A stretch of DNA of 20,870 bases from a virus (IMGVR_UViG_2896595138_000005:1-20870), one strand, 5' to 3'; shown: positions 1-18,000, counted from the first letter of the stretch. Translations and numbers: made by a program. Notes: generated by a model from the letters alone, not told the origin.

Positions 1-819
1 ATGTGTCAGGTATTTGGTGTATCCAGGAGCGGTTATTACAACCGGGTACAGCATGAACCCTCAGACAGAAAACAAAGTGATGAGCGGCTAAAACTGGAGA
101 TTAAGGTGGCACATATCCGCACTCGCGAAACATATGGAACCCGGCGGCTCCAGACGGAGCTGGCAGAGAATGGCATCATCGTTGGTCGTGACCGACTGGC
201 ACGTCTTCGTAAGGAGCTAAGGCTACGCTGTAAGCAGAAACGCAAGTTCAGAGCGACTACGAACCCGAACCACAATCTGCCAGTTGCGCCAAATCTGCTG
301 AACCAGACGTTCGCTCCTACAGCACCAAATCAGGTCTGGGTGGCGGACCTGACGTATGTTGCCACACAGGAGGGATGGTTGTACCTCGCTGGCATCAAAG
401 ATGTTTATACGTGCGAAATTGTCGGCTACGCCATGGGAGAGCGCATGACAAAAGAGCTGACAGGTAAAGCCCTGTTTATGGCGCTCAGGAGCCAGCGCCC
501 ACCTGCCGGGCTAATCCACCACTCTGATCGAGGTTCACAGTACTGCGCATACGATTACCGGGTCATACAGGAGCAGTTTGGTCTGAAAACATCAATGTCG
601 CGTAAAGGTAACTGTTACGACAACGCTCCGATGGAAAGCTTCTGGGGAACGCTGAAAAATGAGAGCCTGAGCCACTATCGTTTTAATAACCGGGATGAAG
701 CCATCTCAGTAATACGGGAATACATTGAGATTTTCTACAATCGTCAGCGTCGTCACTCTCGTCTGGGGAATATCTCCCCGGCAGCCTTCAGGGAAAAATA
801 TCATCAGATGGCTGCTTAA
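1..819 (+). CDS. IS3-family transposase OrfB (DDE integrase catalytic domain)
   Basis: 272-aa ORF with recognisable IS3 OrfB features ([24 protein letters not shown]); same protein as 17139..17957. Confidence 0.85.
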   Translation: MCQVFGVSRSGYYNRVQHEPSDRKQSDERLKLEIKVAHIRTRETYGTRRLQTELAENGIIVGRDRLARLRKELRLRCKQKRKFRATTNPNHNLPVAPNLLNQTFAPTAPNQVWVADLTYVATQEGWLYLAGIKDVYTCEIVGYAMGERMTKELTGKALFMALRSQRPPAGLIHHSDRGSQYCAYDYRVIQEQFGLKTSMSRKGNCYDNAPMESFWGTLKNESLSHYRFNNRDEAISVIREYIEIFYNRQRRHSRLGNISPAAFREKYHQMAA

Positions 820-862
820 AAAAAGAACAAATGGTAGTGTCCGCTATTGCCAGTACACCTCA
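1..862 (+). mobile_element. IS3-family insertion sequence (IS600-like), partial right-hand copy; window begins inside the element
   Basis: 1..862 matches 17139..18000 of the complete copy base for base where compared; the two diverge immediately after ...CCAGTACACCTCA. Confidence 0.85.
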
Positions 863-982
863 AAGTGCAAGCTGGTTCTTTAGTTTTGTTACTTCTTCAA
901 GTTCAGTGAACACCCCGGACTTAATTAAAGCGTTACGAGCGATTGTCTCTTTCATTCTCGTTGTTAAGCGGATTGATGACAT
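860..982 (-). pseudogene. truncated small ORF whose stop codon is supplied by the IS terminus
   Basis: GAGG-type RBS 7 nt upstream of the ATG at 982; the reading frame ends at TGA 862..860, which is the terminal TCA of the IS on the other strand. Confidence 0.25.
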
Positions 983-1161
983 ATTAATTCCTCTCAAATA
1001 AGTGGTTTGCTGCCTGATTTCATTTTCTGGCGACCAACACAAGTCACACCCATTTCACTGCGTGGCTTGCGGTAGTAAAGATTGTGCCTGTCTTTTAACC
1101 ACATCAGGCTCGGTGGTTCCTTCACTTTCCACAGTCAAAGGAAAGGAAGGTTCAGCGGCTG

Positions 1162-1578
1162 CTATTGAGGTGCTGGAAGTTCAGAAACCGATTTATCAAA
1201 TGCTTTTCGCTCACGTGAAATAGTTTCTGCCTGATTAATCATTACCTGAGCCTGCTGGCGAACAGCTTCACTGGCAGGCTCTTTTGTTAAGAGCTGTGTA
1301 AAACCCGCGATAATGTTGCTGGCTAACATCTCAAACCGTTTTTTCTGAATATCTCTTGATTCTTCATCAATTGGTGGTTCACTATTGCTTAGTGCCGTTA
1401 CATATACGCGAATTGCCGCTGACCGGACATCATCAGGAAGATGATCAAATGTACTGGCTCTTGTTTTTACAAGTTCGACAATATTTGCCTTCTTAATATC
1501 TTCAGTTTTTTCATCAAGTACTGAGATAAAATTTTTTACTGATGCTTCTAATAACGCTTCTAATTTATTTAAATCCAT
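1162..1578 (-). CDS. hypothetical protein immediately downstream of N (pL operon)
   Basis: 138 aa from the ATG at 1578, with a GAGG RBS; sits 2 nt after the N stop codon. No recognisable family. Confidence 0.45.
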   Translation of the reverse strand: MDLNKLEALLEASVKNFISVLDEKTEDIKKANIVELVKTRASTFDHLPDDVRSAAIRVYVTALSNSEPPIDEESRDIQKKRFEMLASNIIAGFTQLLTKEPASEAVRQQAQVMINQAETISRERKAFDKSVSELPAPQ

Positions 1579-1580
1579 AA

Positions 1581-1964
1581 TTACCTCGCTGTCAGTTGTT
1601 TTGATTTCCGGTAGCCTGCCGCGTAAATGGCTACGTTTGGAAGACATACACCAGTTTCTGGTTGCTTATGTCCAAACTCATTCGCGTACACAATGGCCGC
1701 TCGCTCCAGATTGCGTCTGTATTCTTTCTGTTGCCAGATCACGTCCTGTGCCATGAACTTAATTGGCTTAGCGTCTTCTATGCGCTCAGGCGTTTCGTGA
1801 GTACCTTTAGCCTGAATCTGCGCTCTGCTTAGAGTAGGGCGGTGTAATACTTCTGAACTTATTGCTTCTTCGCGGGCCAGCACGCCGTTAGCTAATGCCT
1901 TTGCCTTTAAACGCTCACGACGACGAGAACGTGAATTGCCTTTGAACTGAGTTCTGCGTGTCAT
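1581..1964 (-). CDS. N: N-family transcription antitermination protein (P22 gp24 / Stx-phage N type)
   Basis: 127 aa with an N-terminal arginine-rich motif (NSRSRRRERLKAK) and a C-terminus YAAGYRKSKQLTAR typical of the N family; lies downstream of OL and a boxB hairpin. Confidence 0.8.
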   Translation of the reverse strand: MTRRTQFKGNSRSRRRERLKAKALANGVLAREEAISSEVLHRPTLSRAQIQAKGTHETPERIEDAKPIKFMAQDVIWQQKEYRRNLERAAIVYANEFGHKQPETGVCLPNVAIYAAGYRKSKQLTAR

Positions 1965-2128
1965 ATAGACCTCCTGATGAACTTTGGTGGTGTGGTAGGT
2001 GGGAGACCCATTTTGACCTGTTTCGGCCTACTTCAATTCGGCAATAGTCCCGCAGGCCTCGCCGCTTTACGTGCGACATATTCCCGTCCATGAACCCTTC
2101 ACCACACCCAAAGTTCACTTTGGTTATT

Positions 2129-2143
2129 GCGCTTTGTCAGCGC
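2129..2143 (-). promoter_or_regulatory. nutL boxB-like hairpin
   Basis: Minus-strand GCGCTGACAAAGCGC: 5-bp stem with GACAA pentaloop, between OL and the N start. Confidence 0.55.
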
Positions 2144-2214
2144 CGTAGATTCATATTCGAATCGTTGTATATTCACCGCCCTGGTGAGTAGTGCGTCCTG
2201 CTGATGGCTTAAAG

Positions 2215-15926: not shown

Positions 15927-15951
15927 GTCCTCTCATATTGAAAATTCAGCA

Positions 15952-15975
15952 ATAAAAAACCCAGCCGAAGCTGGG
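15952..15975 (-). terminator. rho-independent terminator between the ORF6N gene and the antirepressor gene
   Basis: Minus-strand CCCAGC-TTCG-GCTGGG followed by TTTTTTATT. Confidence 0.55.
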
Positions 15976-15994
15976 TCGTTGCGTTGGCAATCTG

Positions 15995-16672
15995 TCAGTA
16001 GTGATGTAGTGAAGGAGGTAATTCTTTGTTCTTAAGTCTTACCCATGCAGAAAGATTCGTTGGTCCGTCTGGCTCATTAATATCAACATCTCGTGTGTGA
16101 TTGATTAAAACGTCTCTCGCCATTCCGATAACATACGAGAACTCATGACCGTAGTCGTGGCATCTGCCGGAATAGTTAGACTGAATTTGTCTTAGCGCCG
16201 GATACAGTTCGCGGAATAATGCCTGTGAGCGGTTGGCATAATCCCACAACCATACCAGACTGTTTGCATCTTTTGCAGAAAGCTCGCTGGTTTTCTTCTC
16301 GTGATGACCTGCGCTTTTCGAAGTCTGGCTGAAATAGCAGTCTTCCAGTTTTTCGAACACGTCCCATGCCTGATCGGTTTCGAGCATCTTCGCGTGACGG
16401 GCTGCGCCTCGTTCTGTCCAGAGGATGAGCGAGCGGGCATTTTTACCAACTAACCCGATTGTTTCGGGTCTGTTCTTAAACTCGCGTAATTCGTTTTTTT
16501 CAATTTTAAAGTAATGCTTTCCTACCACGAATCGCATCGTGTTGTTCAGAAAATTATCAGAAATGTTTTTGATTTTTGTTCCGTATAACTGCGCCAGAAG
16601 TTCAGTTGTAATAACGGGGATCTGGTTGTGGGTGATTGCAGGAAGAGTGTCGACAGAAATTTGAGTGAGCAT
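15995..16672 (-). CDS. ORF6N-domain phage protein
   Basis: Start assigned to MLTQ (GGAG RBS 8 nt upstream); the longer ORF-track frame runs into the IS; the IS left end lies about 65 bp upstream of the assigned start. Confidence 0.5.
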
Positions 16673-16800
16673 AACGATAACTCCGTACATTTGGTCATTA
16701 TCGCCACCTTCTGGTCTCAATAATCTGGTGGCGAGCTGAGGTAGCCTGAGTTTAACGGACACTCCTTCCTGAAATAGAATGGCATCAGAAGGAGCTAATA

Positions 16801-17103
16801 ATGAGCAGAAAAACCCAACGTTACTCTAAAGAGTTCAAAGCCGAAGCTGTCAGAACGGTTCTTGAAAATCAACTTTCGATCAGTGAAGGCGCTTCCCGAT
16901 TATCCCTTCCTGAAGGCACTTTAGGACAATGGGTTACCGCCGCCAGAAAAGAGCTCGGTACTCCTGGTTCCCGCACGGTGGCTGAACTGGAATCTGAAAT
17001 TCTGCAACTGCGTAAGGCGTTAAATGAAGCTCGCCTTGAGCGAGATATATTAAAAAAAGCAACAGCGTATTTTGCACAGGAGTCGCTGAAAAATACGCGT
17101 TAA
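16801..17103 (+). CDS. IS3-family transposase OrfA (HTH, leucine zipper)
   Basis: 100 aa; the A7G frameshift site lies near its 3' end. Confidence 0.85.
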
Positions 17104-17138
17104 TCGAACAATGGCGACAACAATTTCCCATTGAAGCG

Positions 17139-17957
17139 ATGTGTCAGGTATTTGGTGTATCCAGGAGCGGTTATTACAACCGGGTACAGCATGAACCCTC
17201 AGACAGAAAACAAAGTGATGAGCGGCTAAAACTGGAGATTAAGGTGGCACATATCCGCACTCGCGAAACATATGGAACCCGGCGGCTCCAGACGGAGCTG
17301 GCAGAGAATGGCATCATCGTTGGTCGTGACCGACTGGCACGTCTTCGTAAGGAGCTAAGGCTACGCTGTAAGCAGAAACGCAAGTTCAGAGCGACTACGA
17401 ACCCGAACCACAATCTGCCAGTTGCGCCAAATCTGCTGAACCAGACGTTCGCTCCTACAGCACCAAATCAGGTCTGGGTGGCGGACCTGACGTATGTTGC
17501 CACACAGGAGGGATGGTTGTACCTCGCTGGCATCAAAGATGTTTATACGTGCGAAATTGTCGGCTACGCCATGGGAGAGCGCATGACAAAAGAGCTGACA
17601 GGTAAAGCCCTGTTTATGGCGCTCAGGAGCCAGCGCCCACCTGCCGGGCTAATCCACCACTCTGATCGAGGTTCACAGTACTGCGCATACGATTACCGGG
17701 TCATACAGGAGCAGTTTGGTCTGAAAACATCAATGTCGCGTAAAGGTAACTGTTACGACAACGCTCCGATGGAAAGCTTCTGGGGAACGCTGAAAAATGA
17801 GAGCCTGAGCCACTATCGTTTTAATAACCGGGATGAAGCCATCTCAGTAATACGGGAATACATTGAGATTTTCTACAATCGTCAGCGTCGTCACTCTCGT
17901 CTGGGGAATATCTCCCCGGCAGCCTTCAGGGAAAAATATCATCAGATGGCTGCTTAA
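17139..17957 (+). CDS. IS3-family transposase OrfB (DDE domain)
   Basis: Identical to 1..819; the frame is open upstream of the ATG, consistent with -1 frameshift fusion to OrfA. Confidence 0.85.
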
Positions 17958-18000
17958 AAAAAGAACAAATGGTAGTGTCCGCTATTGCCAGTACACCTCA

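Follow-up and report, generated by a model that had tools for sequence, protein, structure and literature searches.

How did a run of phage genes come to lie between two copies of the insertion sequence (IS) IS600, and did these elements simply land there or did they rearrange the DNA around them? This question is posed by IMGVR_UViG_2896595138_000005:1-20870, a viral stretch of 20,870 nucleotides (nt), termed the window here, for which an original prediction made from the sequence alone had proposed IS-mediated rearrangement. Coordinates are window positions, with negative values or values above 20870 denoting the extension into the source genome. That genome is GenBank CP026845.1 (GCA_002950375.1), in which the window occupies approximately 1149481-1170350, and the two agree without mismatch across 13,300 nt at the left and 14,876 nt at the right. 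The host chromosome appears to be of Shigella type, and the species is presumptive; among 5,426 complete E. coli genomes searched with the whole window, no place covering at least 80% of it was found. The extended 38-kb sequence (-9140..29065) was aligned to K-12 and to phages. The answer favored here is that repeated homologous recombination among dispersed IS600 copies very probably shaped what is now a multiply rearranged, defective lambdoid prophage of mlrA/yehV.

The window holds a single long direct repeat with a spacing of 17,138 base pairs (bp), in which positions 1-863 equal 17139-18001 exactly (863 nt). This is far beyond chance expectation and agrees with the predicted pair of same-orientation IS copies 17138 bp apart. 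The final matching base (863/18001) lies outside IS600 and is a coincidence. The copies and the two open reading frames (ORFs) of the complete one, with lengths in amino acids (aa), are as follows:

1-862, plus strand: right-hand 862 bp of IS600 copy 1 (orfB 1-819); left flank the 3ʹ end of ycaM, right flank AAG (863-865)
16737-18000, plus strand: IS600 copy 2, complete, 1,264 bp; flanks AGC (16734-16736) and ATG (18001-18003)
16801-17103: orfA of copy 2, 100 aa, HTH_Tnp_1
17139-17957: orfB of copy 2, 272 aa, rve domains

Copy 1 is cut by the window edge only; in CP026845.1 it is complete (-401..862), with 2 differences from copy 2 in 1,264 positions. As judged from their sequence, both elements qualify as IS600 (IS3 family) by length, termini, identity and two overlapping ORFs with a predicted -1 frameshift, and simple IS600 insertions at related loci show the 3-bp target-site duplication (TSD) of the family. 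The termini of copy 2 form imperfect inverted repeats, TGAGGTAGCCTGAGTTTAACGGACACT and AGTGTCCGCTATTGCCAGTACACCTCA, whose 27-nt arms are 70% complementary (TGAGG...CCTCA), and the element ends read TGAGGTAGCC.../...CACCTCA. Copy 2 is 99.8% identical over 100% of its length to many RefSeq features named "IS3-like element IS600 family transposase." An A7G slippery run lies at the end of orfA near position 17052, and RefSeq annotates a "programmed frameshift" on an IS600 copy of identical type.

Neither copy is flanked by a TSD. At the complete copy, the differing triplets AGC and ATG on which the original prediction rested were read directly. That prediction would have given way to simple insertion had matching duplications appeared once the sequence upstream of position 1 was available; in CP026845.1, this sequence gives copy 1 the left flank ...GGTCAGAAAAT (AAT) against the right flank AAGTGCAAGC... 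(AAG), with no duplication. The triplets AAT, AAG, AGC and ATG match neither within either copy nor in any cross-pairing. These mismatches are informative because seven of seven simple IS600 insertions at related loci have perfect 3-bp duplications (TCC, ATA, CTT, CCT, GGC, AAC and GGG).

The flanks themselves come from different places. Left of copy 1 are the last 398 nt of ycaM, followed by ycaN-ycaK-pflA-pflB-focA-ycaO-ycaP, and to its right are the 5ʹ 120 nt of a phage gene of the Nmad5 family (207 aa when intact). Left of copy 2 is phage DNA, the higB-ant intergenic region, at a point 64 nt upstream of the ORF6N/P22AR antirepressor gene, which is intact. To the right of copy 2 is a chromosomal gene fragment, nt 263 to 44 of mlrA (yehV) on the minus strand, 99.5% identical to K-12; both sides are thus of the kind foreseen. 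Each of the four sites was also read in uninterrupted form, in K-12 ycaM, K-12 mlrA, phage SH2026Stx1 and S. boydii ATCC 49812, and ycaM and mlrA are 1.27 Mb apart in K-12. Because the four flanks represent four separate loci, each IS600 copy joins halves of two different insertions, and at least four IS600 insertions are implied. The absent TSDs and the four flank loci, together with exchanges seen in sibling genomes, support IS-mediated rearrangement over simple insertion.

Around the two IS600 copies, the window is divided into these segments:

863-10043, plus strand: block A, lambdoid early region in canonical orientation
10033-10043: 11-bp microhomology GGGAGCCGAAA at the block A/block B join; no IS there
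10044-16736, minus strand: block B, nin-late region of the same phage, inverted
18001-18220, minus strand: mlrA (yehV) fragment, nt 263 to 44 of the K-12 gene, between IS600 and the phage attachment site
18201-19279, minus strand: attL and the 3ʹ 1,027 nt of an integrase of the yehV/mlrA-integrating Stx-phage type
18253-19200: truncated integrase ORF (intʹ)
19280-20870, minus strand: ISSfl3 (IS66 family), 99.2%, running on to about 22024

The expectation that the IS repeats bracket the phage region holds for the block between the copies, which is phage, and fails for the attL-intʹ remnant (18201-19279) to the right of copy 2. Homology to mlrA stops at nt 44 (window 18220), and 18201-19279 is 94% identical to VT1-Sakai, where the annotation gives truncated yehV, an attachment site and int. 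The N-terminus of the integrase, approximately 86 codons, has been removed by ISSfl3, which abuts an internal ycaI fragment at about 22024, a third junction of unrelated DNA. Beyond that fragment lies IS600 copy 3, inverted and with a proper CTT duplication, followed by ycaI-ihfB-rpsA-cmk-ycaL. The order phage body, IS600 copy 2, mlrAʹ-attL-intʹ therefore places the phage body on the wrong side of its own attL-int. The ISSfl3 transposase is frameshifted (ORFs 19312-20490 and 20214-20870), and IS600 copies are inserted in or abut ISSfl3 at differing positions in CP026877.1, CP026846.1 and S. boydii ATCC 49812.

Comparison of the junctions with related genomes, the check that the original prediction had called for, yielded empty sites for all four flanks as well as siblings in which the same half-junctions are joined to other partners. 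Over -402..10405 (10.8 kb), CP026877.1 and the source share 99.89% identity. There, the IS600 left of block A carries ...GGTATCACACTT (...CACACTT, the ycaI flank of copy 3) at its left inverted repeat and AAGTGCAAGC, the flank of copy 1, at its right inverted repeat, and ycaI-ihfB-rpsA-cmk-ycaL stand in the opposite relative orientation. This flank pattern indicates an inversion with copies 1 and 3 as its endpoints; one product junction of this event was read, and the reciprocal second junction was not retrieved. CP026877.1 also has a new IS600 in terLʹ (TSD GGG) and is without window positions 18001-20033 (2,033 bp), directly beside copy 2. The latter is a deletion of the kind originally predicted for the interval between the direct copies, located instead in the neighboring interval.

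It could be argued that such differences reflect events coupled to transposition, either adjacent deletions or one-ended IS600 events, rather than recombination between copies already in place. The 2,033-bp deletion begins exactly at the right end of copy 2, and an adjacent deletion would look the same as an insertion followed by recombination. However, the difference between CP026845.1 and CP026877.1 at copies 1 and 3 has the flank pattern of a two-copy exchange, with one junction read, and the loci joined here were separated by over 1 Mb in the ancestral map. Moreover, IS3-family elements transpose by a copy-out/paste-in route via a circle, which gives simple insertions. Transposition-coupled events are accordingly considered an unlikely source of the arrangement.

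A second sibling, CP026846.1, together with a provirus of the same locus among viral contigs (L022), shares the ycaMʹ..AAT/IS600 junction, which is joined to window position 14120 instead of 863. In CP026846.1, intʹ-attL also leads into an uninterrupted mlrA, whose sequence across the site is that of K-12 (...AGAAACAT/TACTGAC...), with yohO-yehW-yehX beyond it. It therefore provides the empty site for copy 2, beside the same attL-intʹ-ISSfl3 junction. Because this genome keeps the canonical order intʹ...O-dnaB-nin, although it is itself rearranged, the two blocks and the attL-intʹ remnant are taken to belong to one mlrA-integrated prophage.

The same genome bears on whether IS600, 15.9 kb of phage DNA and IS600 moved as a unit in the manner of a composite transposon. 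Two complete direct copies do bound the segment, but the outer flanks AAT (ycaM) and ATG (mlrA) mismatch and lie 1.27 Mb apart in K-12, leaving no single target, and CP026846.1 keeps O-dnaB-nin by attL-intʹ in canonical order and orientation next to an intact distal mlrA. This counterpoint is limited by the fact that CP026846.1 shares the ycaMʹ/IS600 junction and is itself rearranged. With no single TSD around the whole unit, the segment does not qualify as a composite transposon, and its movement as one is very improbable.

An assembly artefact, in which contigs were mis-joined across identical IS600 copies, has to be weighed as well, since the repeats are 1.26 kb long and nearly identical and short-read contigs all break at IS ends. 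However, JARKNR010000001.1, an independent complete assembly, has the same order as CP026845.1 over more than 36 kb, and the agreement of two independent assemblies makes mis-assembly unlikely. A 1.26-kb repeat is also far below PacBio read length, and the sibling differences are marked by private IS insertions with proper TSDs; an artefact is therefore given as little credence as the composite transposon. JARKNR010000001.1, otherwise identical, has an additional same-orientation IS600 (TSD CCT) between the holin and lysozyme genes, equivalent to window 12977-12979, so that three direct IS600 copies span the region there.

Two independent simple IS600 insertions into a colinear prophage, each with its own TSD, retain virtually no probability: simple insertions do occur here in relatives (TSDs CCT, GGG, GGC and ATA), but the upstream sequence and the empty sites contradict matching duplications, the flanks being AAT/AAG and AGC/ATG and both sides of each copy deriving from different loci that are uninterrupted elsewhere.

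The element's identity, the junction sequences, the empty sites and the IS600 exchange between sibling genomes are directly shown; the pathway, including whether duplication or circle reintegration or else serial inversions took place and in what order, is inferred. Under the preferred reading, recombination among dispersed IS600 copies, it may be reconstructed as follows. The phage would first have integrated in mlrA/yehV. IS600 would have inserted independently at at least four sites, in ycaM (AAT), the Nmad5-like gene (AAG), the higB-ant intergenic region (AGC) and codon 88 of mlrA (ATG). Host homologous recombination between these 1.26-kb, >99.8% identical copies would then have swapped flanks, so that copy 1 now leads from ycaMʹ to the phage early region and copy 2 from the ant end of the phage to mlrAʹ, an exchange that would have left the phage body on the wrong side of the attL-int end. 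The late block (ant...terLʹ) would have been flipped by illegitimate recombination between 11-bp inverted repeats, with no IS involved, and ISSfl3 would have truncated int, joining it to ycaI. This history comprises at least four IS600 insertions and several recombination events; it is not a single rearrangement.

Several points weigh against this reconstruction. The predicted partner junctions of copy 1 would read CACCTCA+AAT+AGCCATTAACGGG (the 5ʹ part of ycaM) and AACTCTGGCGTC+AAG+TGAGGTAGCC (the rest of the Nmad5-like gene and the early-left genes), and those of copy 2 CACCTCA+AGC+TGTGCAGGGTTGAGAC (40 bp and the rest of terL) and GTAAGTCAGTA+ATG+TGAGGTAGCC (distal mlrA-yohO-yehW); none of the four could be retrieved. 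Reciprocal exchange at copies 1 and 2 themselves is therefore presumptive, and deletion may have removed some of the flanks. The flanking chromosomal blocks are permuted relative to K-12, the left block (ycaP...ycaMʹ) running from about 955-957 to 948.26 kb and the right block (ycaI...ycaL) from 966.0 to 960.3 kb, so a further breakpoint or duplication between ycaP and ycaL must lie outside the 38 kb. Finally, the ycaMʹ-IS600-mlrAʹ product expected from deletion of the 17,138-bp unit was found in none of the genomes examined.

Such a deletion is nonetheless plausible, the two direct copies being a substrate for RecA-dependent loss of the 17,138-bp unit, in which no essential gene is visible. 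The ancestral order was attL-int...phage body, and the present order is the reverse. This could be the junction type of a tandem duplication between direct IS copies, of circle excision and reintegration, or of serial inversions. More specifically, the reversed order may be the fossil of an IS600-mediated tandem duplication or of circle excision and reintegration at another IS600 copy, a tentative idea that is held to be doubtful. If true, the IS600-bounded prophage module would be an amplifiable or translocatable unit, like the stx region of S. dysenteriae 1 according to published accounts, perhaps still at measurable frequency.

In contrast to these IS600 events, the inversion of block B is, by sequence comparison, independent of any IS. 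Aligned to an intact relative, the phage of E. coli RMDEC465 (L001), window 7957-10043 runs backwards along the phage and 10033-16738 runs forwards, from the interior of terL to the higB-ant intergenic region. The 11-mer GGGAGCCGAAA is present in this relative in inverted orientation at both breakpoints, the higB-ant intergenic hairpin, which reads GGGGGAGCCGAAAGGCTCGCC in intact relatives, and terL. CP026875.1 carries this prophage at 99.4-99.7% identity without the inversion and with early-left genes and a long TerL; the inversion therefore appears to be a separate illegitimate recombination event. A search of viral contigs for its reciprocal product (join CCGGCGAGCCTTTCGGCTCCCGTAAAGAGG) found none, and the observed block A/B junction was found there once, in the provirus L022. 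Block B terminates in intergenic DNA ...GGTGGCGAGC directly before copy 2, and copy 2 is only 40 bp from the hairpin breakpoint of the inversion. The hairpin is possibly a fragile or preferred site.

The insertion in mlrA provides another route to mlrA loss. Queries with synthetic IS600-mlrA and mlrA-distal-IS600 junctions found 0 of the 5,426 complete E. coli genomes covering at least 80%, and the insertion is therefore taken as lineage-specific. MlrA residues 88-243 (LLTYLQ...PLGI, after Thr-87), searched against 5.8 billion proteins, yielded no protein fused to the predicted IS600 leader. When the 74-aa mlrAʹ ORF (17954-18178) and a 270-aa intʹ ORF were looked up for other contexts or the deletion product, only the source genome was returned, and a 315-aa int ORF had no record. 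A mlrA::IS600 allele common to S. flexneri was considered and rejected, as the S. flexneri fragments end in a different sequence. In that species, mlrA is disrupted independently: widespread fragments of 69-75 aa end in ...LLTYLQSVNRPGNPGD and not in an IS600-derived tail. These sequences suggest that mlrA loss is convergent in S. flexneri and this lineage. mlrA encodes an activator of the curli regulator csgD, a pathway whose loss in Shigella is established.

Rearrangement of this kind is familiar and part of ordinary Shigella genome dynamics; no new mechanism is involved. Five IS, IS600 among them, have expanded in every Shigella species, and IS are seen as a source of rearrangements and of deletions between homologous copies (Hawkey et al. 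2020, PMC7373316). An IS600-associated inversion is reported to distinguish S. flexneri 5b from 2a (Nie et al. 2006, PMC1550401), all chromosomal inversions in S. dysenteriae 1 genomes are IS-associated (PMC7819885), and IS-mediated rearrangement in Shigella is also the subject of Yang et al. 2005, as cited in PMC7373316 and PMC7819885. The present locus shares with these cases an expanded IS serving as portable homology, inversions, translocations, deletions, lost TSDs, prophage decay and strain variation. It does not differ in kind, and the cluster of ycaM, mlrA-prophage and ycaI junctions was not found described in the literature searched.

The closest parallels to the prophage are of two kinds. 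One is the Stx prophage found between sapC and ychK in S. dysenteriae 1, which carries stxAB (PMC7819885); as that source cites it, this IS-riddled, defective prophage spontaneously amplifies in tandem and is spontaneously deleted (McDonough & Butterton 1999, Mol Microbiol 34:1058). Like it, the prophage in the window is defective, lambdoid, IS-riddled and IS600-bounded; unlike it, the attachment site here is mlrA/yehV, stx is absent, and no amplification or deletion was observed. In S. dysenteriae 1, IS600 repeats reportedly mediate the amplification and deletion events. The second parallel is with yehV-integrating Stx phages such as VT1-Sakai (AP000400), BP-4795 and YYZ-2008, whose attL core and integrase match those here at 93.5-94.6% identity and which integrate at the same point, mlrA nt 43/44; the early region here also resembles those of Stx phages. 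Unlike in these phages, the integrase is truncated, stx is absent, and the 38 kb contain no head or tail genes. The late genes resemble those of HK620/L001-type phages, unlike those of yehV-integrating Stx phages.

The locus is a record of a prophage being taken apart, and a Shigella chromosome reshuffled, through the expansion of IS600. With 38 kb and five complete sibling genomes, it offers a worked example at base-pair resolution of insertion, flank exchange, inversion, deletion and microhomology inversion. It is also a region that makes a poor synteny or typing anchor and breaks short-read assemblies.

Block A, which ends within part of the higB-ant intergenic region, contains the following:

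860-982, minus strand: 5ʹ fragment of the Nmad5-like gene
1162-1578, minus strand: 138-aa ORF
1581-1964, minus strand: N
2767-3300, minus strand: 177-aa ORF
3490-3830, minus strand: DUF3024 gene, split
3868-4437, minus strand: cI
4687-4911: cro
5050-5349: cII
5707-6531: O
6521-7957: DnaB-type helicase
8033-8473: NinB
8470-9159: Dam-NinE fusion
9201-9509, minus strand: helix-turn-helix (HTH) antitoxin
9499-9888, minus strand: Gp49/HigB-like toxin

Block B continues with the late genes:

9950-10420: 5ʹ fragment of terL, in a 156-aa terLʹ-intergenic fusion ORF
10423-10977: terS
11079-11336: 85-aa ORF
11333-11830: KilA-N
12036-12539: Rz/Rz1
12433-12996: lysozyme
12996-13211: holin
13328-13403: tRNA-Thr (TGT)
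13409-13483: tRNA-Asn (GTT)
13744-14367: Q
14364-14552: NinH
14549-14911: RusA
14908-15198: YbcO
15198-15920: Rha/KilAC antirepressor
15995-16672: ORF6N/P22AR antirepressor (ant), intact

The predicted products of the two blocks match the Pfam families N_peptide, Peptidase_S24/HTH_3, Phage_CII, Phage_rep_O, DnaB, NinB and Dam/NinE, as well as RusA, Antiterm, holin, lysozyme and Terminase_2, and the blocks are 95-99% identical to phages and prophages. The gene content thus makes up the lambdoid set N-cI-cro-cII-O-P(DnaB)-nin-Q-lysis-terminase. The prophage is defective: inducibility needs a colinear order with intact int/xis, terL and morphogenesis genes, whereas here both int and terL are cut short, the late block has been flipped, and -9140..29065 contains no head or tail genes. 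A Stx-converting phage was considered and rejected, as stxAB is not in the Q-holin interval (13212-13743), which contains tRNA-Thr and tRNA-Asn only.

Further decay is visible in single genes. Dam and NinE, separate genes in the E. coli RMDEC465 phage and in CP026846.1, are fused into a 229-aa ORF. The DUF3024 gene is split into 84 and 29 aa compared with 113 aa in siblings, and the lysozyme/Rz region (12036-12996) is altered, with a 187-aa lysozyme in place of the siblings' 165-aa lysozyme and 155-aa Rz. The Gp49/HigB-like toxin and HTH antitoxin (9201-9888) lie in the nin region on the strand opposite phage late transcription. Many Shigella and E. coli prophages keep this toxin-antitoxin pair at the same position, and the exact toxin protein occurs in 159 collection blocks.

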